Under the pieces are notes generated by a model. That model searched no databases and was not told where the DNA came from. It was given only the letters and a program-made list of their open reading frames with translations. From a phage, in NCBI GenBank assembly GCA_024672315.1, contig GCA_024672315.1_4714.1: a stretch of 64,000 nt of DNA. One strand, written 5' to 3'. Each line of letters starts with the position of its first letter. Position 1 is the stretch's first letter. Shown here piece by piece: positions 2,553 through 61,372 of the stretch. A program made the translations under genes and the position numbers.

Positions 2553-4706
2553 TTACTCTGTGGTTTCTCGCTTCGGTAAATAACTTGCTGCAATGTCTTG
2601 GGCTAACAATGTATTGTTTTTATTCGAGATGAAAATACCGTAACTTTCCATTAACGCGTAATACGAACGCACGAGCGTAGAGATCAATCGACGAATATCC
2701 ATACCTTGAATAAAGATATCGGGAAGCCCGGAGGCTTCGATCACCGGTAATGGTATCGTTAAGTTGCTTATCGTTTTCTTATCGTTACGTACAATCCAAT
2801 CACGGAAACGTTGTTGTAACCCTTTATCCTCCCAGGAATCAATCCAATCGTTAAGAAGCGTTTTGTTCTTCGTCGCCAACGGCACACGAACCCCAACATA
2901 GGGTGGTTCCTGGCAATGGCCGTACGATTGAGCAAACACCTCTTCCCACATATCGTAAGACTGTTTCGTTACTGCAACATGCGGTTTCACTTTAACACGT
3001 GTTAAGAAATCAGGATCACCACGTTTCATGGACTCAACGATTTCGTTTTCTAACGAGATAATATCGTCAAGAACCAATCGAATGCTGATCTTCTCATTAC
3101 GTAACAGCTTATCCATGATACCGCACATCATGCGTTCAACACGTTTGACGATCATTTTTGGTGCTGACGCATCGCGCATAACCGGACCTTTCAATTCCAG
3201 CTTCGGTGGATTGATAGGAACCCCTTCACGCATGGTCATGTAACCGTAATAGTTTTTACCCATCGAGGTTAACGACAGAATCAAGAACATATATTCGTTC
3301 TTCATTTCCATCACGTACATATGCTCTTTCGCCACACCGATATTACCAGAACACATCGCCATCAGATGGACTGTAATCTGCGTAACCAGATAGATAAGCG
3401 TGTTTGCTAAGCGCGTCGAAACTGGATTGATCTCCATATTTCCAAATCGCCACTGAACCCACTCCTGGCAGGTAAACACTGTCGAGTCGGTATCAGACAA
3501 CACACCCACTTCACGGATTGCTGATGGGAAAGCATAAACGCCAGCCGGTTGATTCTCGGTACGCCAGAACGCCATAATCAAATCAGCGTAGCTTTGGATA
3601 CGCTGTAGCATTAATTTTGTCGTTGCTGCGGTAAGACGATAACCAAGTTCATTTCCTTTTTCTAGCGCTACGTAAATCGCCTCCCCATTCAAGAACTCCG
3701 TGCATTGTGCTGTAATCCAAGCAACCGTGTTGTTATCCATGGAAGCAATAATGGCTTTAGCCTCTTCCATCGTTTCAACAGGTTCGGATGCCAGTTCACA
3801 TAACGAGTCAAGAAAATCTCGAACAAATTCAGGATTAAGCTCACGTAACGAGTACAGGTTATTGCTGTACATGTAGCAGGCGCGTTCTAATGGCGTTAAA
3901 CCGGTAATTAGCTCCCGGATGGTCAGCTCTTTCTCTGGGTCGAAAGTATATCGATGCAAGCATTTCGATACGTTAGCCCAAACCTCTTCCGGCGTAGGGT
4001 AATGCAGTTTGTATTTTACCATTACCTGCTCAATGGCTTTACGATCGCTATTACGAACAATGCTCACGATGTTTTCAATTGCGATATCACAATCGTAATA
4101 ATGGAAATTGCCCGCAAGGAAGCGTTCGTTGTTCGCATTGGCTGAACCTGAAGCACAGCGACATGTTGTCGTTAAGCTTGGATGCGCAATCGGATTATAA
4201 AAAGGGTTGAACTTGGACGCCTGGGTTCCTGACAAACTGTTGTTATCTAACTTGGTGTTGGTTTGTCGCTTATCGTGTAACTCAGCTTCATCTTTACGTC
4301 CGTGTGCTTGTGCTATCGACATTTGTTTCTTTTGTTTCTTACGCAACTTACCGTTTTCAACCGCAAAGTCGCTTAGCACACTGGAGCGTGTCTCACGTGG
4401 ATAACAGTTAGCCCACACCGGCGTGATAATTAAATTATTTTCTTTAATATCGTTGAAGTATTGGCTGAACTTGATGACTTCTTTTTCACGATTTCCTTCG
4501 GTACGCTGTGTTAATACCAGGCAGTCGGGATCAACCATCCCGTATTTTCCACCAGGACGAACCGTTTCAAGAACAAACTGCAACGCTTCCTGCTGAGATA
4601 TCCCACGCATGCGCATTAAGAATAGGGTATAATCCTGTACCGCTTCTTTGGTCATATCCAACGTACGACCATATCCGTTTTCATCGTAAAAGAACGGATT
4701 TTCCAT
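2553..4706 (-). CDS. Hypothetical protein (717 aa)
   Basis: Long ORF; ATG at 4706 preceded by TGGAGGATTT (RBS); no motifs confidently recognised. Confidence 0.7.
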   Translation of the reverse strand: MENPFFYDENGYGRTLDMTKEAVQDYTLFLMRMRGISQQEALQFVLETVRPGGKYGMVDPDCLVLTQRTEGNREKEVIKFSQYFNDIKENNLIITPVWANCYPRETRSSVLSDFAVENGKLRKKQKKQMSIAQAHGRKDEAELHDKRQTNTKLDNNSLSGTQASKFNPFYNPIAHPSLTTTCRCASGSANANNERFLAGNFHYYDCDIAIENIVSIVRNSDRKAIEQVMVKYKLHYPTPEEVWANVSKCLHRYTFDPEKELTIRELITGLTPLERACYMYSNNLYSLRELNPEFVRDFLDSLCELASEPVETMEEAKAIIASMDNNTVAWITAQCTEFLNGEAIYVALEKGNELGYRLTAATTKLMLQRIQSYADLIMAFWRTENQPAGVYAFPSAIREVGVLSDTDSTVFTCQEWVQWRFGNMEINPVSTRLANTLIYLVTQITVHLMAMCSGNIGVAKEHMYVMEMKNEYMFLILSLTSMGKNYYGYMTMREGVPINPPKLELKGPVMRDASAPKMIVKRVERMMCGIMDKLLRNEKISIRLVLDDIISLENEIVESMKRGDPDFLTRVKVKPHVAVTKQSYDMWEEVFAQSYGHCQEPPYVGVRVPLATKNKTLLNDWIDSWEDKGLQQRFRDWIVRNDKKTISNLTIPLPVIEASGLPDIFIQGMDIRRLISTLVRSYYALMESYGIFISNKNNTLLAQDIAASYLPKRETTE

Positions 4707-35456: not shown

Positions 35457-38400
35457 TTATTTAGCGTCGTTAAAGTAAATATCAACAGCTCGTTCCGTTG
35501 CGTAGAGGAGACCAAGATTCACAGTCCCAACCACTTCCGGTGAACCGATGATACGGTTAGCGATACTGGTGCCACTGAAGATAGCATCAAGGGTGTGCCC
35601 GTCTTCGGTTTTGTTCACACCATGACCCACGGAAGAGACAACGGATTTCGCTTGTGCTGCGAAGGTACCTTTATCACCCATCCCCGCACCAAGGTCGTAA
35701 CGCATGAAAATACGGATAGCGATCTGGTTCTCGCCTAACGGATTACCGTCTATTCTCACGTTACTGTTATTGATACGCCCTGTTGTTGCCTCGCTGAGTT
35801 TCAGTTCCTTGACGCGTTTAGCTCGCGCTTTATCCGCTTCACCGACGAGCGCCGCCATGGTTTCGCTCATATCCTCAATCTGAGCGCGGTACAGTACATC
35901 GATCTGTACAACTTCACCATGAACATCAGCACGTGGGTTATACTGACTCATACGACGTAATGCTTCAACGGCTTCCTGACTCTCATCACTCAGATCAGTT
36001 GCGATCGGTTCTTCCAGTGTTGCAAGAATCGTTCGCGGTTCAACGTGGTCGCCGATTTTCACAAGACCACGAATGTTGAGATGGGCGTCAACGATAAGCG
36101 TACGGCTCTTAATCGATGGTGTTACGAGACGATCAGCAAGATTGTCGAAGATATACGAACTGTCCTCGTGAGTCTCTGGAATATCCAGAATACCGACAAG
36201 AGACAGAACACCTGCGCGCCAAACAACCTGACCCGGGTTCCACCAATCGCGTTTAAAATAAAGACGATGGAAAACCACCACATCCTGATCCTTAACGCGA
36301 TCCCCGACTTTATAATCGGTAATGAGATCATGGGGATAATACTTACCTGGTCCTTTCCCGATTATCGTACCGAGCTGGAAAACCTCTTCCCCTAACTCTG
36401 GATCGTCGTATTGTATCGTAAGCGCGGTTTTGGTGACCTTCTTCACAACACCATCGCCTTGGGCAGCTGCTGCGAAGAGCTTACCAACACGATGCGCGAT
36501 GACAGTCTCACCACCTGTACGCCACGGTTGTACATCGTAACCTTCAGCAGCAATCATGCGGTTGTGTTGGATCCCGACAAAGACCAGACGTTTTCCATCG
36601 TCGCGGTCTACAGCCGGAACAGCTAACGCTGACGTACTCATTACCGATGAAATGCCGTCTGTCTTTTCATCGAATGGTCGTGTTTCACCATATACCGACA
36701 CGATATTAGCATTAGGTGCGAGGTAAGCAGAAATACCTACGTCCCCGCTATCTTTCGTACCCTCTGACACAATACCAACATCGGACTTGTCGTATTCACG
36801 ATCGCGTGCGCGTCGAAGCGATGTCTTTGAACGACCTCCGATACCGGTCATCGTCGCTTCTTCACCCTGCTTGATATCCAACATCGGGTTGGTTTCATCA
36901 ATCACGATGGAAGCACTGTCGTCGAGAATCTGGTTCCAGACACTTACCGGACTGATTGATATTTTCTGGCGATTTCCTTGACTGCTGTTCTCATTCTGAC
37001 GAATAGCACCAACCAGGTCCTTATACACCAATTCAGCGAACTTATCGTACGTTTTAAAACGTTGGTAGTTCACATCGTTCGTGTTAGGAGCCCAATCATC
37101 CAGAAGCAGTTCAACAGCACGCAGTAACAACATGGCGAAATCGGTAGGTTCTCCCATGTTCTGTAGCAACGTACGGCTTACCGGATCAACGAAAAGACGC
37201 TCCATGAGTTCAAGTTCGCGTAAATGACGAACCTTAAGTCCAGCACCATCGACAACGTTAAAATAGATATCTCGATTGTCAAAAGCGCCGCGAGCGTAAC
37301 CGATGTAGTTACGGTATTCGTTAAACCCACCCAGCAACAACGTCGTCATGCGATCGTCTTTACTGAAGATCAAACTTTCGTCATCAAAGCTCACCGCGAA
37401 TTCATCGGGTGCTAGACCCATACGAGAACCGCGAGGTACCGTACGATAGTTCGCTTTAAGATGTTCTAATAACGGGGTAAGTCCACCCAGATAACTTAGA
37501 ACAACACCGACCGGAATACGTACACCCATGAATTCAAGATCGGCGGCTTCGATCGGCATCTTAGCCGCATTGATACCGAAGAAATCAGGGAACGTCCCTA
37601 CAGGTGTTGGTGTTTGTCCTGACTGACAGATATAGAGCTGATTGCGTTTATCGATTGCTAAGAATTCACCCAGCGTGTTACGCGCAAACGTCAGGAGCCC
37701 TTCGGCTAACTGTTCGTTGAACCGATCTTCCCCGATGAACTCCGGCAATGTCTTTGTATCGAGACGTATATCCCAATCAGCAAATTGGATTTGGGTATAG
37801 TTGCGTGCAAGCACAGCGAAGTAATACGGAACTTTGACGGCCGGATCAAAGACGTTACCGCGTTTCAACGTGGTTAAGGGTGAGGATTTATCGTAATACA
37901 TCGCCGTAAGTTGACGTGTTAGCCAACGACCGGCGTTATTAACGACGCGCTCTGAACGTTTAACAAACACCTTACCGTAGGCGGTACTCAACGCAACTTC
38001 AGATGACGATACCTTTCTAATAGGTTTATCAACACGTTGTTTACGCATCCGGTATTTGATGCCGTTAACGACATAAATGCCATCCTTACGAACCTTCGGC
38101 AACATCACCGGGAACGTGGTCGGGACACCGCCTACGGGAGCCAGTTTAATCGTGATGACTTGATAATCCCCCATCACGTCAACAACATCTTCGACTTTAT
38201 ATCCCGTAACAGGGTAACCCGCCTGCTGTACCGCAACAACAGCGGCTGCGATGTCCTTTTGCATTACGTGTTCAACGTAATGTTTATCCCACACCGCAAG
38301 CGTCGATTTACACAGGCTCTTATCGACGATAACATCCGCTTCCGGCATAACCTTTGCAGGAGCTAATTTCGCGGCTTTTGGTTTAACTTCAACATACTCG

Positions 38401-39803
38401 GCAAGTGTTAATCCAGAACCGTCGGGTGCTTCGATTTCATGGATGGCGTCAGCATTACGCATCGCTGCTTTATATTGGACACCGCTTAACTGACCTGCAT
38501 CGGCCAGATCGCTCGCGCGCACCAACACCGCATCCGATAACGACTGAATATACTCACCGTGTGTTTTTGGTAACGTTGTCGCGTCAAAGACATCAACCTT
38601 TTCTTCTTCGGTATCGTCGGTAACGACTTCGAAGAGATCGTCGGTAATGTCCTGATCTTCATCAGGTTGGAAATCCGGTTGTACTTCTACCCCAGGTACT
38701 TCACGGACATCTTCGAACGAGCGTTCTACAATGGCGTTCCACGCATCAGCGTCATCGTCTTCATCCGACCCGCCGACCAACTCAGCTTCTAACTCATCGG
38801 GATCAAGAACGGTAGCCAGATCCTCACCGTTAGGAAGCACGACGTCGCGATCATCGTACTCCGCATCCGGGCTGTCCGCAAGAATATCTCGCTCCTGACG
38901 AAGAACCTGTTCCTCTTCTTGTTTCTGTTCTTCTTCATTCGCGCTCTGCGACCACAGACGTGTTACCGCCATCATCCAACGACGTTGGAAGGTTTCAAGT
39001 GTCGTTTTATCGAGTTCTTCCCCTTCCTTTACAAGTCCGGTACGCCATTCTTCCAGCAGGCCGAGATTCAGCGTAAAGAAGTACACGCCGTCTGTGAATA
39101 CAACGTTAAGCTTGTCCAGCGTGGCTCTGTCTAACGAAGCCATCGTGCTGTTCTCACGATCGGTTCCCAGCCAGCGGAAGAAGTCAAAGAACGACAGCTC
39201 CTCCGGTGTGGCGAAATTCATGAGGTTGTTACGGGTCGGTGCCTGTTGCGTGGTACGCATCAACGAAATCTTCGGCAATGTTGACGGTATACGGAACAAC
39301 AAAAAGTGTTGGCGATCGCTTTGCTGTGCGATTTCGTTGGCTTTCGACCAAATTGTTTTACGTACATTGAACCATTCATCATACCAACGGGTGAGCGTTG
39401 GACGATAAATGTACATGTGGTTAAGATGCGCGTAGTTAGCAACGATCTGAGCGTTGATGTTTTTCTCCACCGTGCTTAGATCGGTAACCAAACGAAAACG
39501 ACGATGTGATGCACGATAATCCAATTTCGCTCGTGGGAGTTGGAATCGTTGATCGCGTCGAGGTGCACCCTGTTTGGTTGCGAGATCATCAGCAAACGAA
39601 ATCCATAGTTGAGCATTTTCTTTACTCAGCATGTATTCGTTTTCTGGAGGACCTATCAATGAAGGATCCGTTGCGATGTAATGATAGACAGCATAACGCG
39701 GCAGCTGCAATAGCTGCACTAAACGTAATCTTGGTGATAGTAACTCTTGGTAGCGTCTGACACCAAACTGTCGGTAGTAATCAAGGTATTTAAGTTTTGC
39801 CAT
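35457..39803 (-). CDS. Multisubunit RNA polymerase beta-like subunit (N-terminal part of beta; 1448 aa)
   Basis: TGIGGRS..RRARDREYD..VGIVSEGTKDSGDVGISAYLAPNA aligns with E. coli RpoB [40 protein letters not shown]; downstream AVPAV and GDKG segments align with beta NMQRQAVP and GDKxAGRHGNKG. No GEME region, so the beta C-terminal part is presumably encoded elsewhere. ATG at 39803 preceded by GGAG and an in-frame stop 2 codons upstream. Confidence 0.8.
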   Translation of the reverse strand: MAKLKYLDYYRQFGVRRYQELLSPRLRLVQLLQLPRYAVYHYIATDPSLIGPPENEYMLSKENAQLWISFADDLATKQGAPRRDQRFQLPRAKLDYRASHRRFRLVTDLSTVEKNINAQIVANYAHLNHMYIYRPTLTRWYDEWFNVRKTIWSKANEIAQQSDRQHFLLFRIPSTLPKISLMRTTQQAPTRNNLMNFATPEELSFFDFFRWLGTDRENSTMASLDRATLDKLNVVFTDGVYFFTLNLGLLEEWRTGLVKEGEELDKTTLETFQRRWMMAVTRLWSQSANEEEQKQEEEQVLRQERDILADSPDAEYDDRDVVLPNGEDLATVLDPDELEAELVGGSDEDDDADAWNAIVERSFEDVREVPGVEVQPDFQPDEDQDITDDLFEVVTDDTEEEKVDVFDATTLPKTHGEYIQSLSDAVLVRASDLADAGQLSGVQYKAAMRNADAIHEIEAPDGSGLTLAEYVEVKPKAAKLAPAKVMPEADVIVDKSLCKSTLAVWDKHYVEHVMQKDIAAAVVAVQQAGYPVTGYKVEDVVDVMGDYQVITIKLAPVGGVPTTFPVMLPKVRKDGIYVVNGIKYRMRKQRVDKPIRKVSSSEVALSTAYGKVFVKRSERVVNNAGRWLTRQLTAMYYDKSSPLTTLKRGNVFDPAVKVPYYFAVLARNYTQIQFADWDIRLDTKTLPEFIGEDRFNEQLAEGLLTFARNTLGEFLAIDKRNQLYICQSGQTPTPVGTFPDFFGINAAKMPIEAADLEFMGVRIPVGVVLSYLGGLTPLLEHLKANYRTVPRGSRMGLAPDEFAVSFDDESLIFSKDDRMTTLLLGGFNEYRNYIGYARGAFDNRDIYFNVVDGAGLKVRHLRELELMERLFVDPVSRTLLQNMGEPTDFAMLLLRAVELLLDDWAPNTNDVNYQRFKTYDKFAELVYKDLVGAIRQNENSSQGNRQKISISPVSVWNQILDDSASIVIDETNPMLDIKQGEEATMTGIGGRSKTSLRRARDREYDKSDVGIVSEGTKDSGDVGISAYLAPNANIVSVYGETRPFDEKTDGISSVMSTSALAVPAVDRDDGKRLVFVGIQHNRMIAAEGYDVQPWRTGGETVIAHRVGKLFAAAAQGDGVVKKVTKTALTIQYDDPELGEEVFQLGTIIGKGPGKYYPHDLITDYKVGDRVKDQDVVVFHRLYFKRDWWNPGQVVWRAGVLSLVGILDIPETHEDSSYIFDNLADRLVTPSIKSRTLIVDAHLNIRGLVKIGDHVEPRTILATLEEPIATDLSDESQEAVEALRRMSQYNPRADVHGEVVQIDVLYRAQIEDMSETMAALVGEADKARAKRVKELKLSEATTGRINNSNVRIDGNPLGENQIAIRIFMRYDLGAGMGDKGTFAAQAKSVVSSVGHGVNKTEDGHTLDAIFSGTSIANRIIGSPEVVGTVNLGLLYATERAVDIYFNDAK

Positions 39804-39986: not shown

Positions 39987-40505
39987 CCTTGTCTTCGCCT
40001 CAGGTCGCTACGCTGAGACCGCCTGCGTGGATACGTACATCACAGGCTGCTTGCACTTTCATGCAAGAGGAGACTATATCAAACCGTCAGCTTCACCTGC
40101 TACGGTAACCTACACTTCGAAGACGCTTGTCCTCTACAGGGTGGTAAATCCCTTAGTCGTTGAACCTGCGTTGTTTCACATTCTTGTTTGCAAGAATGCC
40201 GTATTGCTACGCAACAACCAGGCTGCTGATTGCCCATTATCACGCACCTTAGCACCGCTTACGCGGCTTTTCTTTCAGCCTAAGCCTCCGTGGGAGGTAG
40301 TGCATCTCAACTGTTGTTTCCGCCTTTCGGCACCTCATGGGTTGTTGAGCTTTAGGGGTTCCCAGCAATTCGTAGGTTTTTCAAGCACTCCCTTTCGGGA
40401 ATACCGGACCAATTCAGTTAGTAAACAACATTATTACCATCCCTCATTCTTAAGGGTTAATTTTTTAAAATGATAAAATTAATGTGTTTTTGGGCTAACT
40501 CGAAG
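39987..40505 (-). other. Group I self-splicing intron (about 519 nt) within the RNAP beta-prime gene
   Basis: On the minus strand in canonical order: P-like AATTGCTGGGAAC (plus 40358-40370), Q-like AATCAGCAGCC (40221-40231), R-like GTTCAACGACTAAGG (40151-40165) and S-like GATATAGTC (40072-40080); exon 1 ends in U, the intron ends in G; no long ORF on the intron coding strand. Confidence 0.75.
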
Positions 40506-41972
40506 ATCACCGCCTAAACCGGCGAGGTATGGCGCAGGAACAATAGTCGTTTCTACGAACGAAGCATTAGGTAACCAGTCGGGGTATTCCCATGCGATAA
40601 ATCGTTCATCCGTTATTGGTTCCCAGTTACTATCCAGTTCGGTTTTCGGTTTTGCAGCGACGGTTGTACGCGCGTAACAGGTTAACGGGATAACGGATTG
40701 CATACCCGATACCGGATAACGTGTTACCATCGCAGCCAGGTTATTCCAGTACTTATATCCGGCGATATAGATAAGCTCGGTGTAAGTAATGGGGTGAACA
40801 TCCGCACCAGGTTTATTCAACATCTCTGGGGGTAATTCACTCATACCACGGAATAACCGAAACGAATCGTTGTTCACATAGACGAGGCAAAGATAACGTC
40901 CATTAACCATGATAGGCTCGTTACGCACACCAGGATCGCTTAAGGTGTTCAATAAACGTTCTATTCCGTCCCATGTTGTAAAGTCATCGATGGTATCTGG
41001 GTCTAACGTGACACGTTCACGTTCCATCGTTTCGATATCGATAAGTTCAACTTCTGTAACATCACGGACAAATATTTCCTGCAAAATCCCCGTACGTAGC
41101 GCATGTTGCGTTACAGGGAGAGCAGCTTTACTCATCTGGTATAACCCTAACTGAACCGCGGTACAGGAAGGCTGGTTAGGCGACCCTAATACCTCCGTTG
41201 TGGGGTTAATTGCCGAAATAACGTTACGGGTTGAGTTCCAAACGCGACGTGAGCCGAACTTACCTTGGAAGATCCCTTTCTTACCCTGGAACATATCCAA
41301 CAGTAAAGCGTAGATATCGTTAAATGTTCTCTGTAAGCTCCAACGTTGACCGTCGTAAACGGGATCAGAATAATCTTTTAATCCATCAGGGACGGTGTTA
41401 GAAATTGCAAGGAAACGACGATACAACTCCGTGATTTCTTGCTCGCTTTCATACCCACCTTCTTTTACTTCTATTTCACGTAAGCCTGCAGGCAATACCA
41501 GTAAGTGACGGGTCATCGCTTTGAACATGTTCTCTTCGACAACTTTAATTCGTAGCTCTCGTTGAGCTGAACCCGTTGAAACGAACTTGATATCAGCGAC
41601 GTGTTGTGCAAAGAACCCGTATCCTGTTTGTCCTGTTAATGCATCAGACGCAACGAAGTCGCGTTGTTCAGGATCCCAACGAGCATACGCCTTTCCCGAC
41701 ATGATATCACCATAGAGGTGTTTTAGTCGAATGAGGCGGTCGTAAATGACGGGATGCAGGATTTCAACTTTGCATTCAATCACCGCAAATCGACGGTCTC
41801 GATCTTCACTACCTGCGCTACCAAAGATGGTGTAAGAATAGAAACCATCATCGTGGAAATTACCGGTGCTTGGGTCACGAATGCTCATGCTCGTGATCTT
41901 GGGGAGAAAACGTAACTGCTGTTTATCGAGGTGTAAAATGCTAATGTTAAACGGCTCTCTGACTTTAGCCAT
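40506..41972 (-). CDS. RNA polymerase beta-prime-like subunit N-terminal part, exon 1
   Basis: AVIECKVEILHPVIY (compare GHIELAAPVAH), LLVLPAGLREIEV..EITELYRRFLAISN (compare VLPVLPPDLRPL..DLNDLYRRVINRNN) and FQGKKGIFQGKFGSRRVWNSTRNVIS (compare [23 protein letters not shown]); ATG at 41972 preceded by AAGAGGAG. The unspliced frame runs 8 codons into the intron to a stop at 40479. Confidence 0.8.
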
Positions 41973-42217
41973 GGAGACACTCCTCTTTACCACCACCGGC
42001 TGCGGCGGTATCATCTGAACACACGAGAGACGTAATGGGTGATGGCGTCACCCATCGCTTCCTTGCCTGATGCCAGGAAGTTATTAGGTTACGTACCGGC
42101 TTGATAAAATCAAGCAGGCGATGTGTGAAGTTACGCTTCAACATTATCAATGCCGAAGGTAAGCTTCGTGCATCACGTTCCAACGTAACATGGGAACGTA
42201 TCGAACTGGAGGTATAC

Positions 42218-45200
42218 ATGGTAGATAAAACCCGTGTTGAGGGTGATGATAATTGGGATAACTGGGATGAAGACTTCTCCCTGGATCTCGATTTCAACGA
42301 ACCCAAAGACGATCGTAAACCGATAACACGCTTTGCGATAGGAGCGGTTAAAGGTGCCGCTGAGGATCTTACTTCCTACGAAAGAATGAAGGAGATCGCC
42401 AGAAACGCATTGCCTAAGGGCTACAGCGACGGTATGGATCTTATCGATTCCGCCGTCGGATCCACGAAGGAACTATACAATGAAGCCGTTCGTGACGTTC
42501 TTCCTAAGGTCCAAAGCTCAAAACGGTTAGCTGCACAACTGACCAAGAAATACCGCGCGAGCATGCCCGATTTCTCGAAGAAAATTCTCGAGCAATGGGA
42601 GCGAGAAGCCAAGGAAGAAGACGAACGTAAACATGCTGAAGAAACCCTTCGTCAACGCATGGCGAGCGCGGGGGACGATGAGATTGCCCGCAAGGTTGCC
42701 GAGGCATTAGGCGAATCAGCAAACCAAAACGCGGATCAGTTCGCTGAACAGCAAGCGAAAGAGAGTATCCGTGACGATATCGCTGATAAACGGTACGCTG
42801 TAACCAACAAACAAATGAGTGCGATGCAAGAAGGCGTCGCCAAGATGGTTGGTTTCAACAACGAATTCGCTGCACGTTACATGCGTAAAAGCCTGGAACT
42901 GAAATATCGTTCCTTAGCGATTCAACGTGCAAGTTTTGATCAGCATAAAAAGTTAGCCGAAGTCTATATCGGTTTATTACAAAACATCCAGAAGAATACG
43001 GCTTTACCTGATGCGGCTAAAGCGAAAATGTCGGAAGAATTCCGTCGTAGCGCATACCAACGTTTCTTTGGTAATGCGTTAGATGCGATGGGTTCTTTCG
43101 AGAACCGTTTCTTTGCCGATGTTAAGAAGAACCTTGCCACCAACGCATTAGGTGCTTTAAAAGGCGTCGTGTCTGGCGCAAACGATGCGTTATACGGTTT
43201 AAACGAAGCGCGTGACTCGATGTCCATGATGGACGGGATGGGGTCAGAAGGCGATATTAAGGAAATGCAAGGAAAGATGTTGGGTCAGTTCATTGGCTCA
43301 ACTGTCGCACCATGGATGGCTAATAAAGGCAGGATGGCGTTACGTGATTTAGCAAAACGCCACCCCAATGCTAAATTCGCAAGTGCGTTAAAAGCCGTGG
43401 ATCAAGGTGGTGAGGCTGCCGCTTACACGACGCGTAATCTCGGTAAACTGCTCCAGGAAGATATTCGTAAAAACGAATTCAATCTTAGCGATCCGTTTTA
43501 CAAGCAATTAATACGCGGCGCAGGGCGTTGGGCGTTCAACATGGACAGCGGACGTAACTTCCGTGTGATGAACGACACCGCTGAAACGCTGGCGGAGCAA
43601 ACGTCTTTCGACGGTTTAACCTACCGCAGCATCAACGAGGTTATTCCAGGCTTTCTTGCACGCATTCTGAAAAGCAGTGAAGGTATCCGCACCGGAAACA
43701 GCGATCCTGACTACGAGGTCTATGACGGCATCAGCGGGCAATTCGTGTCTCAGCGCACGCGTGAGCAAAGCGTCAACGACACACTGTTTAACAAACGTAC
43801 GTTTGGTTATTACGCCAGCCGTTTCAACGAGGTTATCTCGGTCATCGATCCCGATAAGAAATTATCGGAAAAAGCCAGGAAGGCACTGGCTAAGCAGCTG
43901 GCACGAGATAGCGACGCAAACATCGCATTCGACCCAGCTCGTTTTACGGATGAAAGCAACTTCGATCGTAGTATTGACCGCGACGCTATTAAGGAACTTT
44001 CCACGTACTTTCGTGATCGTTACGGTATTCGTGACGATATCAACGATAAGGGCGAACGTCATCAGGTCATTGGAAACCGCGGGCAATATTACACGGAACG
44101 TAACCGAGCTGACCTTCGCTACGGTAATCTGAAATCTTTACAGCCGGATATTCAGCGTAACCTTAACCTACTGAAACGTACTGGTGACGTCCAATATCTG
44201 GAACGTATTGGTATCGTAACGAGAAATAGCGACGGAAGCTACTCGGTTAATCACGATCGGTATTTCTCTGAAATCGATCGATACATCGACCGACCGGAGT
44301 ACGCTGAACGTAACGACGTTAATACGCGATTAACCGCTCAGGAAACAAGAGCGCTGGCGTTGGGTTATCGTGACGCAAAACCATCAGCTGATGACGTCCA
44401 AAATGCGGGTCTGCCACACATCGGTCGTAAGGCTGTTGGAACAGTAACCGTTGATGAAAACATCGGCTACGATAAATGGTGGAACGACACAGGTGTTATC
44501 ACCACATCGCTTGAAGAACAGAATCGAGCGTGGCAAGAACTCTATCTCGAAGCGTTATCTGAAGCATCCGAACAACGTACTGAAATGCTTGCGTTACTGA
44601 AAGCCATTTCTGAGAAAGACCGGTCTAATAACGTTTCGTTGGACGGCGAAGATGTACCTGAAGGTACGGCACCCATTTCATTTATCGATCGTGCCAAACA
44701 AAAACTCGGTGCACGCAACCCCTTTAAAGGCGGCCGTAATCTCCTCTGGAAAGGAATTAAAAATACCGCACGTTGGGGTGTTAAAGGCGCGCGCTGGGGT
44801 GCAGAACGCACGTTGGGTAGTTTGGTAAATTCTGGCCGTCGCATTATCAATTTCAACCGTTTTGTGTTCGGTGCATTATCCAAAGTCGATCAGGTTCCGT
44901 TTGACATTTACGTTAAAGGGGAATCCCAACCACGCATACTGGCTGCTAAACTTCGTCAGGGGTTATACTTCGACGAAGCGACAGGAAAAGCCGTAAAACG
45001 GATGAAGGATATCAAAGGCCCACTCGTTGATGCTGATGGAAACATCGTAATCAGCAACGAGGATATCGAGAAAGGGTTGGTCACTCGCGCGGGTCGTGCC
45101 TTTGAGAATTCAGGACTTAAGGCGTGGGCACGTGAAGGTCTTAATGGAATCACGACGGTATTAAGTCTACCACGGATGTTAAAACGCGGTGCGGTCGAGA

Positions 45201-48200
45201 TCTACAAACAGCTTGACAAGACGCCCGACGTTTACGTCAAGGGAGAATCAACGCCTCGTCTGTTGTCCATGGTGTTAGCAGCGGGTGGGTATTTCCGTCG
45301 GTCGGATGGACAAGTCATCAAAAATCTTGAAGACATCGATGGTGATGTTGTTGATGCACAAGGTAACGTCGTACTTACGCTTGCCGACATGCAGAAAGGA
45401 CTTGTCGATAAATACGGTAAAGCGATTCGTCGCTTAAAAGAAAAGCTCATCAACTTCGGTGTAAAAGCTTTTACGTTACCGTTAACGCTGCTACGTAAGA
45501 CAAAGGACATCCTTAAAGCCCTTCCAGGTAAAGCCGTTAACGGTCTACGACGGATGGGATTAAACTTCCAATCACCTGACGCATTACTGGTGGGAACAAC
45601 GTCGAGTATGGTAGATCGTCTCGATGCGATTTACCAGCTTCTTGACCAGCGTATGCCGGGTGGTGATAAGGATTACCGCGATTGGAATGGCGATGGTGTT
45701 CGAGAAGGATCGCTGGAAGACCTAAAACGTAAGCGTGAAGCCAAGGAAAACGGTAAGGACGACACCGGCAAAGATTCCAATAAAGGGGAAGAAAAGGAGA
45801 AGAAACGAGGATTACTCGGAAGCCTTTTCGATATGCTCGGCGATACCGCATTAGGCAAACGACTCATGGCGAGTCCGCTTGGAAAAATTCTAGGTGGTCT
45901 TGGGGCGGTGTTAAGCGGCGGTGCATCGTTAACCGGGTTGTTGGGCAAGGGTCTCATTAGTGGAACCGGCGCGCTGGTCAAGGGGGGACTAAGTGCGGCA
46001 GGATGGTTAGGACGTGGTGCGTTAATGGCGGGTGGGGCCGCGTTGAACGCCGTTGGTGGGTTATCGGGATTAGGTGCATTCCTTATCTCACCTGTTGGGC
46101 TTGCTATCGCTGGCGGTGCATTGGCTGCTTATGCTGGATGGAAGATCTATCAGCATTTCGCTGAGAAGCCTGACCCGATGCAGAAACTCCGTCTTATTGC
46201 ATACGGTGCAAAAGGGGACGATAAAGACTTCAATAAGAAGCTGCTTGCGACAGAAACATACCTCACCGATCACGTGGTTATGACCGGGGATACCATCGGA
46301 TTCGATCCGAAAGCGGATTCTGAAAAGATTCTCGAAATCTGGGAATTGTCCCTGGAAGATTCCGACCGAATGAACGAATGGAAACGCTGGTATCTGCATC
46401 GTTTTATTCCTGTTTTCGCTCGTGCGTACAAACTCTGGAAAGAGCATATGCCGGACGAGAAGAAATACATGGAAATGGATAAATATCCGAACGGTGAGAA
46501 CAAAGTGAAATGGTCGGAAGCGTTTATCTGGCCTTCCGATAGTCCTGACGGTCCGTATTACGTCGAAGCTAACCCGTTGGGTTCTTCTGGTGCGACGCGT
46601 TATATTGCTGGTCAAGACGTCAAAACCTTGATGCTGAAACAACTCGAAGCCATCAAGAAAGAGTACCAGAATCAGATTAAGCAATACACTCATGATGAGG
46701 CTATTGCTGATTGGTCACGGATGTCTGACACGCAACGTAAATCCGTTGCGCCTAACGCATTACGCGGTCAGAAAGCGTCGTTACGTTTTAACGATAAACG
46801 TTACAACAGTGCTGGCGCTAAAGGACGACAGAAGCTTGACGCAACCGCGGTTATTGAAAGCGTAGACCGTCGTGGTAGAAAATGGGTTGCCGGTGGATAC
46901 ATCGATGAACTCACCAGTCTCCGTGTTCGTGCGTACGGTATCAAGGTTCCGTTGTTAAGTCAGATAAAAGTGCTGATGGAACTCGAAGACGCTGTAGAAC
47001 CTGGCGTAGTCGCTGAAGGTAAAGGTGTTAAATACGGTGGCGATCTTGTTGCGCTCTACAAGAAATTCGCGACGAAGTTCGGAAGAGACGTTAACAGCAA
47101 GCGGGATCAGGATATCTGGTTCGCTTGGATGAATAACCGTTTCCTGCCCGTCTTTTTAACCTATTACCAACAAGTTAGCGACATGGGCGGTCAAGGACTT
47201 CTGTCCGACGTGGTACAGAACCTGAAAGACAGCCAACGCTGGGAAATCGGTGAAGCACTTGTCGCAACGCAATACCGTGATGAGAAAGGTACACTGCAGC
47301 CTGTATGGTCCTGGAATAGTTGTGGTTTCTCCGGTACTGAAGCTAACACCACCAGCAGTTCAACAAAGAGCCAGCTCGATCTGTTAAAAGAATATGCGGA
47401 TAAAGAGAAGGTTCGTGAGAAGAACGCGGAAGCATCGCAAGAGGATGCCGATAAATTATCGAAGATCCAAGAGCTGATGATGAAGCAGGCTGGGTACGAG
47501 AAGAAAGACGGTGTCTGGCAGAAGAAATCACGCATTACCGGCGGGATGAGTAACGCCGAAGCGAATTACAACCCCAATGGGAATAGGGTAGGTGCAAGCA
47601 GCTTTACTGCTTCGGCTACTTCCAGTGCTGGGTTGGGGTCAACCGGCGATCTTACTGGATTGCCTAACATGGGCTTACAGAAACCTGCAATGGGACCAGG
47701 TCCTGAAGCTGGACGTCGTGCGCTTGTTAAATCCGCTGTAAAACGCGGCATTACCGATCCAATGGAAATGGCGATGTTCCTCGCGAACATCGAACATGAA
47801 TCAGGGAACTACACTCACGTACGTGAGGGGAACTATAAGACACCAGAGCGTCTTAAACAGGTCTTCCCTTACAAATTCCGTGATGTACAGGATGCCGCAC
47901 AGACGATCAGCATGGGGCCGGAAGCGGTATTCGAACGTGTGTATGGTAATCGTAAAGATCTCGGGAACACACAGAAAGGGGACGGGGCGAAGTATTTAGG
48001 ACGTGGCTTCATTCAGGTTACCGGTAAAGCTAACTACGCTCGTCTGTCCAAGACCTTGAATAAGGATCTTGTCAGCGATCCGACATACCTGGAAACGCCG
48101 GAAGGTGCGGCGGAAGGTAGTGTCGCATGGTGGCTCAACCGAGGTAACGTGTTACGCGATCCCGCAAAACGGGGTGATGTACGCCAAGTTCGTTATCTGG

Positions 48201-48883
48201 TTAACGGCGGTTTTAACGGATTACGCGATGTTGAACAACGTTCAGCTTATTGGATTCAGGCGGCTAAGAATGGCACCCTGAAGAGAATGATGGACGAGTT
48301 ATCAGGGTCAACATCAGACGATCAAGCTGAAGGACCGACCACTGCCGAACAGGTGAAGAACGAAGCAGCACAAGAGGCAAACGGAACACCTGCTGTAAGC
48401 AACGATCCGCAAGCCCCAGTATCTTCTACTACCCCTGAAGCTAAACCGTCTGCGGCTGCCGGGACGGCCCCAGCACCTGGAGAAGCATCACCAACGCCTG
48501 GAAGTTTCGAAACAGCAAAAGCCGCGGCAGGACAACCGACATCAACTCCAGCACCTAGCGATTTGCCGTCAAACCCGGGCGCAAATCGAGGGATATCGGT
48601 TCCGAATACGCCTGCACAGGTTGCGCAGTCTGCGACACAAACATCGGTTGCAAGTGAGAACTTCTACGGTAGCGCAGGTGAAATTCTCCGACAGCAGCTG
48701 ACCACGCAGCAGAACATCGAGAAGAACACCGGTAGAACGAATGAACTTATTTCGGAATTAATCCAAGCCGTTAAGGGTTCTTCTATCGGTAAGGGTTCTG
48801 CAGGTCCTTCTCAACAACAGACGATGTCGCTACCTAATCGTCCGCAAGGAATCTCTCCAACACGGACAAGGTACGCACAGTAG
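42218..48883 (+). CDS. Giant virion protein (2221 aa) with glycine-zipper membrane segment and C-terminal GH19-like muralytic domain
   Basis: Start re-assigned to ATG at 42218 (GGAGGTATAC RBS). Gly-rich hydrophobic segment at about 45900-46150; GH19/chitinase-like motifs ANIEHESGNY and YLGRGFIQVTGKANY at about 47760-48270; P/A/S/T-rich linker at 48290-48600. Size and domain order resemble the ~2237-aa phiKZ gp181 family. Confidence 0.8.
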   Translation: MVDKTRVEGDDNWDNWDEDFSLDLDFNEPKDDRKPITRFAIGAVKGAAEDLTSYERMKEIARNALPKGYSDGMDLIDSAVGSTKELYNEAVRDVLPKVQSSKRLAAQLTKKYRASMPDFSKKILEQWEREAKEEDERKHAEETLRQRMASAGDDEIARKVAEALGESANQNADQFAEQQAKESIRDDIADKRYAVTNKQMSAMQEGVAKMVGFNNEFAARYMRKSLELKYRSLAIQRASFDQHKKLAEVYIGLLQNIQKNTALPDAAKAKMSEEFRRSAYQRFFGNALDAMGSFENRFFADVKKNLATNALGALKGVVSGANDALYGLNEARDSMSMMDGMGSEGDIKEMQGKMLGQFIGSTVAPWMANKGRMALRDLAKRHPNAKFASALKAVDQGGEAAAYTTRNLGKLLQEDIRKNEFNLSDPFYKQLIRGAGRWAFNMDSGRNFRVMNDTAETLAEQTSFDGLTYRSINEVIPGFLARILKSSEGIRTGNSDPDYEVYDGISGQFVSQRTREQSVNDTLFNKRTFGYYASRFNEVISVIDPDKKLSEKARKALAKQLARDSDANIAFDPARFTDESNFDRSIDRDAIKELSTYFRDRYGIRDDINDKGERHQVIGNRGQYYTERNRADLRYGNLKSLQPDIQRNLNLLKRTGDVQYLERIGIVTRNSDGSYSVNHDRYFSEIDRYIDRPEYAERNDVNTRLTAQETRALALGYRDAKPSADDVQNAGLPHIGRKAVGTVTVDENIGYDKWWNDTGVITTSLEEQNRAWQELYLEALSEASEQRTEMLALLKAISEKDRSNNVSLDGEDVPEGTAPISFIDRAKQKLGARNPFKGGRNLLWKGIKNTARWGVKGARWGAERTLGSLVNSGRRIINFNRFVFGALSKVDQVPFDIYVKGESQPRILAAKLRQGLYFDEATGKAVKRMKDIKGPLVDADGNIVISNEDIEKGLVTRAGRAFENSGLKAWAREGLNGITTVLSLPRMLKRGAVEIYKQLDKTPDVYVKGESTPRLLSMVLAAGGYFRRSDGQVIKNLEDIDGDVVDAQGNVVLTLADMQKGLVDKYGKAIRRLKEKLINFGVKAFTLPLTLLRKTKDILKALPGKAVNGLRRMGLNFQSPDALLVGTTSSMVDRLDAIYQLLDQRMPGGDKDYRDWNGDGVREGSLEDLKRKREAKENGKDDTGKDSNKGEEKEKKRGLLGSLFDMLGDTALGKRLMASPLGKILGGLGAVLSGGASLTGLLGKGLISGTGALVKGGLSAAGWLGRGALMAGGAALNAVGGLSGLGAFLISPVGLAIAGGALAAYAGWKIYQHFAEKPDPMQKLRLIAYGAKGDDKDFNKKLLATETYLTDHVVMTGDTIGFDPKADSEKILEIWELSLEDSDRMNEWKRWYLHRFIPVFARAYKLWKEHMPDEKKYMEMDKYPNGENKVKWSEAFIWPSDSPDGPYYVEANPLGSSGATRYIAGQDVKTLMLKQLEAIKKEYQNQIKQYTHDEAIADWSRMSDTQRKSVAPNALRGQKASLRFNDKRYNSAGAKGRQKLDATAVIESVDRRGRKWVAGGYIDELTSLRVRAYGIKVPLLSQIKVLMELEDAVEPGVVAEGKGVKYGGDLVALYKKFATKFGRDVNSKRDQDIWFAWMNNRFLPVFLTYYQQVSDMGGQGLLSDVVQNLKDSQRWEIGEALVATQYRDEKGTLQPVWSWNSCGFSGTEANTTSSSTKSQLDLLKEYADKEKVREKNAEASQEDADKLSKIQELMMKQAGYEKKDGVWQKKSRITGGMSNAEANYNPNGNRVGASSFTASATSSAGLGSTGDLTGLPNMGLQKPAMGPGPEAGRRALVKSAVKRGITDPMEMAMFLANIEHESGNYTHVREGNYKTPERLKQVFPYKFRDVQDAAQTISMGPEAVFERVYGNRKDLGNTQKGDGAKYLGRGFIQVTGKANYARLSKTLNKDLVSDPTYLETPEGAAEGSVAWWLNRGNVLRDPAKRGDVRQVRYLVNGGFNGLRDVEQRSAYWIQAAKNGTLKRMMDELSGSTSDDQAEGPTTAEQVKNEAAQEANGTPAVSNDPQAPVSSTTPEAKPSAAAGTAPAPGEASPTPGSFETAKAAAGQPTSTPAPSDLPSNPGANRGISVPNTPAQVAQSATQTSVASENFYGSAGEILRQQLTTQQNIEKNTGRTNELISELIQAVKGSSIGKGSAGPSQQQTMSLPNRPQGISPTRTRYAQ

Positions 48884-56877: not shown

Positions 56878-58368
56878 TTATTTTTTACTCGGACGATTCA
56901 ATGCGGGTACCGGGTTCTTTGGTTGCTTTGTCTTTTCATCCATCCAGTACGGGAAGTACTCACCAGTACGCATACGCAATAAGTCCATTGTAGACAGGAA
57001 CGGCAGTGGGTTAGGATCGTCCAAATACGTCCAGTAACCACGCGTGTTTAACAATACATCCCAATCGAAACCTTTTGCTTTAAGATCGTCGTATAGTTCC
57101 TGTGGGGTGCAATACAGCTGTGGGTTTTCGTAAACCTCTTGACGCCAGAGATTATGCATCTGACACAGCTCCGACGTGATTTCCAGAGCACGCTGTAAAT
57201 ACTCATCCTCTTCGCAGAGAGAACGAATGGTCGTACGCTGCAACGCAACATCCGGATAAATATCCAAATATACCGTTGAAGCACCATCCGCTGACTTACC
57301 ACCTGACGCATGCATACCCCAACCACGCATCCAATCTTTATCACGCAGGTAGTGGTATTCCGTTAATGATGGTTTAACCCCTTCGCTCTGACTAACCACA
57401 ATCGGGAACGGTAAACCGGTAGGTCCGTTTTTAGCGCGCATGTTGAAGACTTGAATCAACTGCAGATCGGTATCCCCGATAAGGTTGTCACCAGGCCCAC
57501 GCGGATAAAGGACGCGTTTATCGGCGTTCTGAAGAATCGTCAGTTTATCGATTTTCCAGAGGTTATTCGTATAAAACGTGAAGCGTTCCGGGACGTTCTT
57601 AAACTTCTCATCGCCCTTAAACCCTTTCAGTTTTCGTACCGGCTGCTGGCCTGGCATACCACCAACGTTTACACCGTCACCAAGGTGGGCGGTCATGGTA
57701 ATGTAGATACCCGCCGACGCTGTGAGTACCGGCATCTGTGATAGAATCTGGCTTTTCGCTGCGGCTGAACGCATCGCTTCGGCATTCAGTTTTGCACCAC
57801 CTGCGGTTTCTTTATCGAACAGTGCATCAACGGCGTCGATTGGTAATCCAGAGAAACTGTCGATGAGTACAACGGTTGGCAACCACCAGGTATAGTTCTC
57901 ACCGTGTTTATTAATGAACGGAACGGCTTTGCGTTGAGATTTATCTTTGACCTTGTCATCACGGAATTTCTTAATCGCATCAAACCAAATGTTACCGCTC
58001 ATCTGAACAGCATCGGTGATAAACACACGTTCTTCTTCGAAAAGATCGACGCCTGCGATATTAGACATGTTCATCGCAAGCGTTAAGATACGTGTCGTCG
58101 TTAACGACATTTCTGTGTCGTAAACGCTACTATTGCTGTTTGCGTAACGATCGATAACGCGTAACAAGCGAAACATTATGAACGTGGTTTTGTTCATGTT
58201 GCCGCGAGCGCCTGCGCCCTCAACAAGCATCATACCGCCGTTACAAATGCTTTCACCGTGTTTACCGACATAGTACCGACCACCAGATGTGGGAATATCC
58301 ATTAAGCAGCCAATGTTGAGATTAAAACGCATCTCTTCACCGGGAGAAAGGTACTTATTAAGATTCAT
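56878..58368 (-). CDS. Hypothetical protein (496 aa)
   Basis: Long ORF; no motifs recognised with confidence. Confidence 0.65.
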   Translation of the reverse strand: MNLNKYLSPGEEMRFNLNIGCLMDIPTSGGRYYVGKHGESICNGGMMLVEGAGARGNMNKTTFIMFRLLRVIDRYANSNSSVYDTEMSLTTTRILTLAMNMSNIAGVDLFEEERVFITDAVQMSGNIWFDAIKKFRDDKVKDKSQRKAVPFINKHGENYTWWLPTVVLIDSFSGLPIDAVDALFDKETAGGAKLNAEAMRSAAAKSQILSQMPVLTASAGIYITMTAHLGDGVNVGGMPGQQPVRKLKGFKGDEKFKNVPERFTFYTNNLWKIDKLTILQNADKRVLYPRGPGDNLIGDTDLQLIQVFNMRAKNGPTGLPFPIVVSQSEGVKPSLTEYHYLRDKDWMRGWGMHASGGKSADGASTVYLDIYPDVALQRTTIRSLCEEDEYLQRALEITSELCQMHNLWRQEVYENPQLYCTPQELYDDLKAKGFDWDVLLNTRGYWTYLDDPNPLPFLSTMDLLRMRTGEYFPYWMDEKTKQPKNPVPALNRPSKK

Positions 58369-59360: not shown

Positions 59361-59792
59361 TTATTTGCCGTATAGATGTACCACTCGTTGTGTCGTAGGA
59401 ACGCAGACTCTTACCAGAAGCTTCTTAATCTCCTGACGAATCGTTGCTTTATCATCATAATAAAGCCATGGTGGAACGCGCTGCATTATGCACTGCACGG
59501 CTTCATCGTAGTTCGTCGTCTCATTGAGTAACGTCTCACTATCCAAATCTTTCCATGCAGTAATACCAAGTCGCGCAGCAAACATCAACGCTGAAACCGA
59601 CTCAGCTATCTCCAATCGCTCATTCATATCCGCAAGACCTTTTAGCATGATGTAATTATCATCATGCTGATGTAAAGTGCCATACAAACTTCCGAAGAGA
59701 AGTATACGTTTAGCTTTTGCGGTTAAGAGGAACGACAGGAGAGCGTGTTTCAACGGTTGTTTCTCACGTTCTACCTGTTCGACCATCACCAT
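59361..59792 (-). CDS. Hypothetical protein (143 aa)
   Basis: ORF. Confidence 0.5.
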   Translation of the reverse strand: MVMVEQVEREKQPLKHALLSFLLTAKAKRILLFGSLYGTLHQHDDNYIMLKGLADMNERLEIAESVSALMFAARLGITAWKDLDSETLLNETTNYDEAVQCIMQRVPPWLYYDDKATIRQEIKKLLVRVCVPTTQRVVHLYGK

Positions 59793-59795
59793 TGA

Positions 59796-61322
59796 TTACT
59801 CCAACACATAACGTGGGTTACTGTATATGTTAGCCCATATACCAACGTCGTCTCCTGATTCGATAATCACAGCGAAACGAAACGCAACATCAGATTCACG
59901 ATAAGTTACCGCGTACGCTTTCGTTTCTGGAGATGCTAAATAGCTCAAGTTCAGACGTTGAGGTAGGTCTAACCCCAAGGACATGGTACAAGACGTAACG
60001 CCCTGCTTATCAGGGTTCAGTCTGTAATTCACGTCCACCTTCAGGCTTTTCGTAACCTGCGTAATCGCACTATGCACTTTGGTAACCGTTTTGCCTTTCT
60101 TATCCTTTTCTGTTTCGAAAAGAACATCGGTAATTTCGGTTACAACCAGGCGTGGTGTGGATTCGCGGTTAGCGTCAAGCCATTCATCCAGTAACGTCTT
60201 TAAGAAGTTCAAGGAATCAATCGCACGCCAAGCAAGGTTAGGCGGATTACATGCTTCCATTAAAATGGCTGTGTTCGATCCACCTAGCGGAAGATGCACG
60301 CTCTTACCGAGGCCTGTCGGACGCATCGTAAGATCGCACTCACCCTCAAGAATATCGCGATGATATTGACGATGATGAAGGTTATCCGTGTATGCGATAT
60401 ACACTGACTCCGTTGTCCCATGCTCTAATACCCGAGACGCATGCGTACGCATAATCTCAACAGCATCATCCGGCTTGCTTAAATAGATAACACTGTACGC
60501 ACTATCGCTAATCCTTTTCCCTAACTCAAGACGTCCCTTGTTGTCTTTATCGGTGTTACCACCGAAATAGATGTAGCGGCCATCTTTCGCACGCTCTTGC
60601 TGCTGGTTGGTGGTAAAGTAGCAGCGCGAGAACGTAAAGAACGGGCTTATTTCCGGTTCGGGACTCCAATACCCCTTAGCCGGAAGTTCGCGACGTATTT
60701 GGGTTCTTACAGCCCAGTCCTGGTTTTGTGACAGATATGTTCCACGCGTTGCCAGCATATCCGCACGTTCGTTACCAACATTGCCCTCATGTCCAGGAAC
60801 GTAGCGCAGCGAAATATCGATAGCGTCGCGCTTCGCATCCCTTATCACGCTATCGAGTTTCCGCCACCGTTCCGCATTCATTAACGGTTTATTGTCGGAT
60901 TTAACCCAGTTGTTCTCTCGCCAGTTAGCAAGATGGTTGGTGGCACCTACAACAACATATTGGCTGTCCGACAACAGCTGGATCCGTTTTGCCCCCTTTG
61001 CTTTTCCAAGTTCAATCGCACGTATTGCAGCATCCAACTCAGCCTGATTGTTAGTTACGTTGAAACCCAAAGCCTCTAACTCATCCACGTATTCCTTGGG
61101 TTCGACCAGCACAGCGTCTTTAGGAAAGTCGAGTTTAGGGTCAACATAACCGTATTGCGTTGGTTTGGGCTTCCCACTTTTTGAGGGTTCCAAGGTGCCT
61201 TTTATTTCTTTCACCATATCGTAGGTGTAGCCGTGCACGCCGTAGCCACCATACCCACTCGATGTTGGACGGGATCCTCCATCACAGTAGAAAACGGCAC
61301 CGAGCTCAGTATTTCCTGCCAT
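59796..61322 (-). CDS. RNase HI-domain protein fused to a ~300-aa C-terminal domain of unknown function
   Basis: N-terminal ~200 aa carry RNase HI motifs: YCDGG, TNNQAELDAAIRAIE, LLSDSQYVV and VPGHEGNVGNERADMLATRG (compare E. coli RnhA NNRMELMAAI, TDSQYV, VKGHAGHPENERCDELAR). Start re-assigned to ATG at 61322 (GAGG RBS). Confidence 0.75.
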   Translation of the reverse strand: MAGNTELGAVFYCDGGSRPTSSGYGGYGVHGYTYDMVKEIKGTLEPSKSGKPKPTQYGYVDPKLDFPKDAVLVEPKEYVDELEALGFNVTNNQAELDAAIRAIELGKAKGAKRIQLLSDSQYVVVGATNHLANWRENNWVKSDNKPLMNAERWRKLDSVIRDAKRDAIDISLRYVPGHEGNVGNERADMLATRGTYLSQNQDWAVRTQIRRELPAKGYWSPEPEISPFFTFSRCYFTTNQQQERAKDGRYIYFGGNTDKDNKGRLELGKRISDSAYSVIYLSKPDDAVEIMRTHASRVLEHGTTESVYIAYTDNLHHRQYHRDILEGECDLTMRPTGLGKSVHLPLGGSNTAILMEACNPPNLAWRAIDSLNFLKTLLDEWLDANRESTPRLVVTEITDVLFETEKDKKGKTVTKVHSAITQVTKSLKVDVNYRLNPDKQGVTSCTMSLGLDLPQRLNLSYLASPETKAYAVTYRESDVAFRFAVIIESGDDVGIWANIYSNPRYVLE

Positions 61323-61372
61323 TGTAAACCTCATTAATCATTGTCCGTATGATAGCCCAAAGTTGTACGGTA

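Follow-up and report, generated by a model that had tools for sequence, protein, structure and literature searches.

An RNase HI joined to a predicted clamp-like domain: the probable Rhc replication protein of a Goslar-like jumbo phage

The stretch of phage DNA analysed here (64,000 nucleotides of GenBank assembly GCA_024672315.1, contig GCA_024672315.1_4714.1; the window in what follows) contains a minus-strand gene at 59796..61322 that encodes 508 amino acids and ends in a TAA stop codon (59796-59798). This gene very probably encodes Rhc, a core replication protein of the nucleus-forming (PhiKZ-like, Chimalliviridae) jumbo phages in which an RNase HI is joined to a diverged clamp fold that would bind DNA and dock onto the phage polymerase. 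Earlier work has named and characterised the protein, as Rhc in phage Goslar and as gp155 in PhiKZ, and what we report is a correct annotation and not a discovery. A first-pass annotation of the window had described an RNase HI fused to a large domain and had suggested that the added part could bring the nuclease to replication intermediates or R-loops. The observation is confirmed below and the interpretation is supported, agreeing with the account of Rhc given in the abstract of a preprint (PMC13648698). The open reading frame (ORF), the catalytic set, the clamp-like fold, the relation to Goslar gp246 and PhiKZ155 by orthology and synteny and the conservation of the two domains were established in the present analysis; the nuclear localisation, essentiality and in vitro activity of the PhiKZ orthologue are taken from the literature, as are binding to DNAPC and the need for both domains, these last from the preprint abstract.

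The RNase HI domain

The N-terminal domain (residues 1-204; 60711..61322, on the minus strand like all features of the gene) carries the complete RNase HI catalytic set that the first-pass annotation had claimed, and all four of the motifs that it quoted were located: YCDGG (residues 12-16), NNQAELDAAIRAIE (91-104), SDSQYV (118-123) and GHEGNVGNERADMLA (177-191). That annotation gave no strand; the gene lies on the minus strand. The Pfam RNase_H profile (PF00075) matches residues 87-194 far above chance (E=1.8e-25, 90.2 bits against a cutoff of 25.8). With the uncut protein the alignment spans only profile positions 38-139, and the PDB sequence matches to human RNase H1 and E. coli RNase HI also start near residue 83-88. 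The Pfam match begins only at profile position 38 because the domain is split by a family-specific insertion of about 40 residues between beta2 and beta3 (residues 36-74; 61101..61217), at which the Pfam alignment breaks. When this insertion was deleted in silico the match extended over profile positions 5-139 of 141 and rose to 102.6 bits (E=2.6e-29), and a phmmer alignment of the insertion-free protein to the E. coli enzyme paired D14 with D10, E95 with E48, D119 with D70, H178 with H124 and D188 with D134, the basic-protrusion segment HLANWRENNWVKSDNKPLMN being aligned too. The first-pass annotation had named a failure of the catalytic residues to line up on a proper profile as grounds for giving up its claim; with the insertion removed they do line up.

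Conservation of these positions was followed in 150 diverse representatives of the part of the family that has an intact active site. Four of the five residues are kept in 148 of the 150, namely D14 (codon GAT, 61281..61283), D119 (GAC, 60966..60968), H178 (CAT, 60789..60791) and D188 (GAT, 60759..60761), and the fifth, E95 (GAG, 61038..61040), in 149; all five are invariant in a separate alignment of homologues (A1). By BLASTP alignment D119 corresponds to D102 of PhiKZ155, a residue which has been mutated experimentally (see below). With a profile match above threshold, four carboxylates plus the histidine and an RNase H fold, the N-terminal domain qualifies as an RNase HI of the active type, predicted from its sequence to cut the RNA strand of RNA:DNA hybrids.

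Fold, DEDD plus histidine site and basic protrusion are shared with E. coli RnhA and the catalytic domain of human RNASEH1. Unlike the phage protein, the cellular RNase HI and H1 enzymes have neither the insertion between beta2 and beta3 nor the clamp-like domain, and eukaryotic RNase H1 has an N-terminal hybrid-binding domain in place of the latter. The insertion bears a PTxxGY motif (T55, G58, Y59) in which Y59 is found in 146 and G58 in 143 of the 150 representatives. The motif is retained even in the catalytically decayed clade of phage EL. One possibility is that the insertion serves as a contact surface for the clamp-like domain or the polymerase.

The C-terminal domain and the protein family

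The remaining 300 or so residues had been described in the first-pass annotation as lacking any recognisable motif and as a domain of unknown function. At the sequence level the first part of this description is accurate: Pfam gave no match and no clamp family (best E=0.1), and a profile built from ten homologues found no solved structure and no clamp among the PDB sequences (best E=0.42). The second part has not stood: the fold is recognisably clamp-like, and there is now a name for the protein and experimental work on it. An AlphaFold2 (AF2) model of residues 205-508 alone was confident, with a predicted local distance difference test (pLDDT) score of 83.7 and a predicted template modelling (pTM) score of 0.85, and the full-length model a pTM of 0.83. 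When the C-terminal model was compared with known structures its best matches were the subunits of the 9-1-1 complex, PCNA and the African swine fever virus (ASFV) clamp, which points to a clamp-like fold; beta-clamps, T4 gp45 and herpesvirus UL42/UL44 followed at lower rank. The full-length model gave the same clamp matches, ranked after those to RNase H. The scores were moderate and the identities about 10%. Two subdomains can be distinguished in the model. Subdomain 1 (residues ~205-358; 60249..60710), with conserved GYW (217-219) and GKRxSD (268-273) motifs, is the more degenerate and the further from canonical topology, whereas subdomain 2 (residues ~359-508; 59799..60248), with a conserved D452-x-P-x-R456, has an order of helices and strands near that of one PCNA-type domain. 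We conclude from the predicted structure that the C-terminal 300 or so residues are a strongly diverged two-subdomain clamp fold; as neither Pfam nor the PDB profile search gave a clamp match, the domain is classed as clamp-like in fold and outside every clamp sequence family.

The orthologues of the gene are gp246 (Rhc) in Goslar and gp155 (Nlp2) in PhiKZ. Over its length the gene has 98.4% nucleotide identity with Escherichia phage Goslar, and its product is essentially gp246 itself (QBO64037.1, annotated as 'putative ribonuclease HI'; 99.6% amino acid identity, two differences), the window phage being closely related to the Goslar reference. BLASTP against PHIKZ155 gave 26% identity over 507 amino acids (E=3e-49), and PHROG 3265 ('ribonuclease') matches residues 6-504 (E=1e-103), placing both domains in one polypeptide. 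The neighbourhood reads RecA/UvsX-like gene (minus), 280-aa ORF (plus), 143-aa ORF (minus), the RNase H-clamp gene (minus), 183-aa ORF (minus) and virion protein (plus), and this order, with its strands, matches PhiKZ 152-157 exactly. PhiKZ gp155 and PhiPA3 gp176, like the window protein, consist of an RNase HI and a structured C-terminal domain (PMC12571901).

The same full-length architecture was found by tblastn in 205 phage records, all of them jumbo phages of 200-300 kb, and it persists in homologues down to 23% identity, being present in Goslar, PhiKZ and EL. A word-indexed homologue search, repeated with alignment A1, returned the same proteins (at least 11). Searched exhaustively by phmmer, residues 205-508 alone gave 691 clusters (50% identity), of which 443 had E<=1e-10; in nearly every cluster the domain occupies approximately residues 200-500 of a protein of about 500 amino acids. 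Both domains are strongly conserved across the family. The recurrence of this architecture in homologues and clusters indicates that the fusion is real and ancient and rules out the reading as a frameshift. The short C-terminal matches (233-361 aa) were considered as possible stand-alone clamps. Of five examined, with lengths of 290-361 aa, two (P0106 and P0138) begin inside an RNase H domain and so have the appearance of contig-end fragments; Pfam found nothing in the short matches P0022, P0103 and P0156 or in P0060. Three longer proteins (P0087, P0107 and P0136; 668-707 aa) have a GIY-YIG or I-TevI-type DNA-binding module in front of the RNase H domain, which may be a homing endonuclease that was inserted at the gene's 5' end or fused to it, or a merge made in gene calling.

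For Goslar, a bioRxiv preprint of 2 October 2026 (PMC13648698) states in its abstract that the protein named Rhc (RNase H-clamp) is an RNase HI fused to a domain that binds DNA and derives from a sliding clamp, that it binds DNAPC and is the essential third subunit of a split DNAPN-DNAPC-Rhc polymerase, that its catalytic activity and its clamp-derived domain are both required, and that it has a separable role in late transcription, suggesting resolution of R-loops. As tblastn detected a single RNase HI locus in Goslar, gp246, and this has exactly the architecture described, the window gene is almost certainly Rhc. PhiKZ155, which belongs to the core genome and has an identical gene neighbourhood, was reported in an antisense oligonucleotide (ASO) study (Nature 2025; PMC12571901) to be essential both for maturation of the nucleus and for amplification of the genome, to be nuclear and to have RNase H activity in vitro. 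Its D102N mutant had no activity in vitro, yet complemented the knockdown, restoring plaquing and nuclear maturation (PMC12571901). PhiKZ155 (Nlp2) enters the nucleus through Imp1/PicA (10.1101/2024.03.27.586873). In the survey of Iyer et al. (2021; PMC7824862) the PhiKZ-type group had no classical clamp and no primase and always had RNase H1, while clamp loaders of the RFC type and clamps of the PCNA type were found in another group of jumbo phages; the clamp-like domain had not yet been recognised at that time.

A clade with a degenerate active site and a separate RNase HI

In EL and Klebsiella phage YC1 a split gene was suspected at first because tblastn matched the C-terminal part only. 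This was rejected, as each has a full-length ORF of about 500 amino acids (EL ORF171, L002:2374-3885; YC1, L003:1898-3388) with a diverged and catalytically degenerate RNase H N-terminal domain; the Pfam RNase H profile matched neither of the two proteins. A tblastn search with EL ORF171 gave about 66 records of this degenerate type among PhiKZ-like jumbo phages. In all eight homologues examined (EL, YC1 and, at L012-L017, RisingSun, Miami, OBP, D3, Aphrodite1 and PS1) the first catalytic aspartate is lost or missing and most of the other catalytic positions are replaced, with an HGYxY motif, PTxxGY and the clamp-like domain kept. The degenerate clade also takes in RisingSun/Joad.

EL has, in addition, a separate canonical RNase HI, ORF124 (L008:37191-37682; Pfam E=1.2e-45), in which every catalytic residue is present. 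It is located two genes downstream of ORF122, which encodes the NAD-dependent DNA ligase. The stand-alone enzymes of the degenerate clade are canonical and of about 160 amino acids, and they were listed for at least 20 EL-type phages. No second RNase HI was found by tblastn in the phages with the intact fusion, Goslar and the window included: all 27 intact-fusion records among the matches listed have one locus. From sequence, these phages seem to obtain RNase HI activity in one of two ways, in cis or in trans. On balance we favour the interpretation that RNase HI catalysis and the clamp or polymerase-accessory function are separable modules across the nucleus-forming jumbo phages, most lineages (Goslar and PhiKZ included) having the two in a single protein and the clade of about 66 records having a fused pseudo-enzyme together with a separate canonical RNase HI.

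PhiKZ gp199 (L011:11064-11495), labelled 'RNase H', was considered as a second RNase HI that might account for complementation by PhiKZ155 D102N and was rejected; it has the motifs FVDTEF ... HNALFDA of a DnaQ-like DEDDh 3'-5' exonuclease and no detectable similarity to RNase HI. It was listed as 'RNase H' in the ASO screen, a label that fits the fold superfamily at most. The alternation between cis and trans leaves the result with PhiKZ D102N unexplained.

Proposed role, alternatives and genomic setting

In the role that we propose for Rhc, the N-terminal RNase HI would cut the RNA strand of hybrids, that is RNA primers and R-loops, and the clamp-derived C-terminal domain would bind DNA and dock onto the split, clamp-less family B polymerase. 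The protein would probably then do two jobs, acting as an accessory or processivity-type subunit of the phage polymerase and supplying an activity that removes hybrids at the replication fork and on transcribed DNA within the phage nucleus, from which host RNase H is presumably excluded. The clamp-like domain is envisaged as a loader-independent monomer, with no closed ring, by analogy with herpesvirus UL42. The predicted likeness to sliding clamps (HUS1/RAD9/RAD1, PCNA, the ASFV clamp, T4 gp45 and beta-clamp) lies in a two-subdomain fold of the beta-alpha-beta-beta-beta type and in a part in DNA transactions; the window protein differs from them in having no sequence similarity and a degenerate first subdomain. 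It is also covalently fused to its enzyme, whereas clamps normally recruit theirs via PCNA-interacting-protein (PIP)-type motifs or clamp-binding ones, the PCNA-RNase HII complex being an example. The closest functional analogy may be the herpesvirus processivity factors, UL42 of herpes simplex virus (HSV), UL44 of human cytomegalovirus (HCMV) and PF-8 of Kaposi's sarcoma-associated herpesvirus (KSHV), which have a clamp fold, bind DNA directly with no need of a loader and associate with a family B polymerase of viral origin.

Several observations weigh against this reading of the gene. Apart from the empty profile search against PDB sequences described above, Foldseek gave no PDB match at E<=1e-3 for the C-terminal domain; its top match was a di-domain aromatase/cyclase and no clamp, and PCNA and RAD9 came at ranks 2-6 with E values of 0.01-0.04 and, for PCNA, probabilities of 0.23-0.41. 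An hhalign comparison of residues 222-358 with 359-506 in the 150-sequence alignment showed no similarity between the subdomains (probability <1%, E ~0.4-0.5). The subdomains of clamps usually have no sequence similarity to one another, and for this reason the hhalign result is uninformative. The equation of the window gene's Goslar counterpart with Rhc, although a strong inference, was made without a gene number, the preprint abstract giving none. The PhiKZ and Goslar studies also disagree, as far as the Goslar abstract goes, on whether catalysis is needed: the catalytically dead D102N protein complements in PhiKZ, whereas in Goslar catalysis is reported as required.

A rival suggestion is that the essential role is a structural or licensing one, independent of the nuclease, in which the RNase H fold senses hybrids or acts as a scaffold that couples nucleus maturation to genome amplification, cleavage being secondary. 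The restoration of plaquing and nuclear maturation by the inactive PhiKZ155 D102N protein (D119 here; PMC12571901) speaks for it, as does the EL-type clade, which keeps the domain, HGYxY, PTxxGY and the clamp-like domain with most catalytic residues gone. Against this, the catalytic residues are kept in at least 148 of the 150 intact-type representatives, the degenerate clade has a separate canonical RNase HI, suggesting that the activity is still needed, and the abstract of the Goslar preprint gives catalysis as a requirement (PMC13648698). We regard a nuclease-independent role as rather unlikely, but it overlaps in part with our preferred explanation and the two functions may simply be separable. 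That the C-terminal domain forms a true closed ring round DNA, a dimer or trimer put in place by a clamp loader in the manner of T4 gp45 or PCNA and bearing the RNase H, is suggested by the identity of its best structural matches, which are ring-forming clamps (9-1-1, PCNA, the ASFV clamp, gp45 and beta-clamps); it is made improbable by the absence of a classical clamp from the PhiKZ-type group, RFC loaders and PCNA-type clamps occurring in a different one (PMC7824862), and by the degenerate state of the first subdomain. To the idea that the C-terminal region is not clamp-derived and is instead a double helix-grip or hot-dog (SRPBCC-like) domain that binds a ligand or a protein we give only a very slight chance. 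Nothing was found in favour of a pair of genes run together through a sequencing frameshift or mis-annotation, an objection that the first-pass annotation had itself raised and to which we attach practically no probability: the frame is continuous, the architecture is the same in Goslar, PhiKZ, EL, the 205 records and nearly all of the 691 clusters, the full-length AF2 model is of the quality given above, and the short matches include contig-end fragments.

Returning to the gene itself, a single minus-strand ORF without internal stop runs from 59796 to 61334 (512 aa), the 508-residue protein being counted from its second ATG, at 61322. This start is preferred to that at 61334 because a GAGG Shine-Dalgarno sequence (61329..61332, minus strand, read from the sequence) lies 6 nt upstream of it, the Goslar annotation has the identical start codon and a public protein of 508 aa (P0001) is 100% identical to the window protein; the same GAGG overlaps the alternative upstream ATG (61332-61334). 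Promoter and terminator scans gave no more sites than in shuffled sequence; where a phage brings RNA polymerases of its own, a sigma-70 scan would not be expected to be applicable. The downstream neighbour, a 143-aa ORF of unknown function (59361..59792, minus strand; phrog_9853) that starts 3 nt past the stop codon and is the positional equivalent of PhiKZ154, is probably co-transcribed with the RNase H-clamp gene; co-transcription has been reported for PhiKZ154-156.1 (PMC12571901). Also in this neighbourhood is a UvsX/RecA-like recombinase (56878..58368, minus; phrog_97, E=1.8e-32), the positional equivalent of PhiKZ gp152 (Nlp1), which has been described as RecA-like (10.1101/2024.03.27.586873); since it has no Pfam match at E<=0.001 it is strongly diverged.

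Elsewhere in the window, a divergent family B DNA polymerase subunit (2553..4706, minus; Pfam PF20286 divDNApol, E=1.6e-204; phrog_2927) is probably DNAPC, the partner of Rhc, to judge from the preprint abstract and Iyer et al. (2021); it lies some 55 kb from the RNase H-clamp gene. A tubulin/FtsZ-family protein (9096-10076, minus; Pfam Tubulin E=8e-7, 29.9 bits, under the 33-bit gathering score) is presumably PhuZ, the spindle protein of nucleus-forming phages. RNA polymerase beta-type subunits are encoded at 35457-39803 and 40479-42014 (minus; phrog_3148 and phrog_2986), adjoined by a 2260-aa ORF with a TTG start (42101-48883, plus). The divergent polymerase, the PhuZ-like tubulin and the beta subunits of a multisubunit RNA polymerase together make up a chimallivirus gene set.

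An RNase HI carrying a clamp-derived module would partly fill a gap in the biology of these phages, which replicate in a protein-walled nucleus with a split, divergent family B polymerase and no recognisable clamp or primase (PMC7824862), and the fusion would account for the removal of primers and R-loops in a compartment closed to host enzymes. The only possibly new point in our analysis, the complementary occurrence of an intact fusion and of a dead fusion accompanied by a stand-alone RNase HI, bears on the dispute over whether the nuclease is essential. If the two functions are indeed separable modules, the RNase H fold of Rhc would have a non-catalytic job in the polymerase complex, for example in hybrid recognition or as a scaffold, and cleavage of hybrids would be needed by all these phages with its tethering to the polymerase dispensable.

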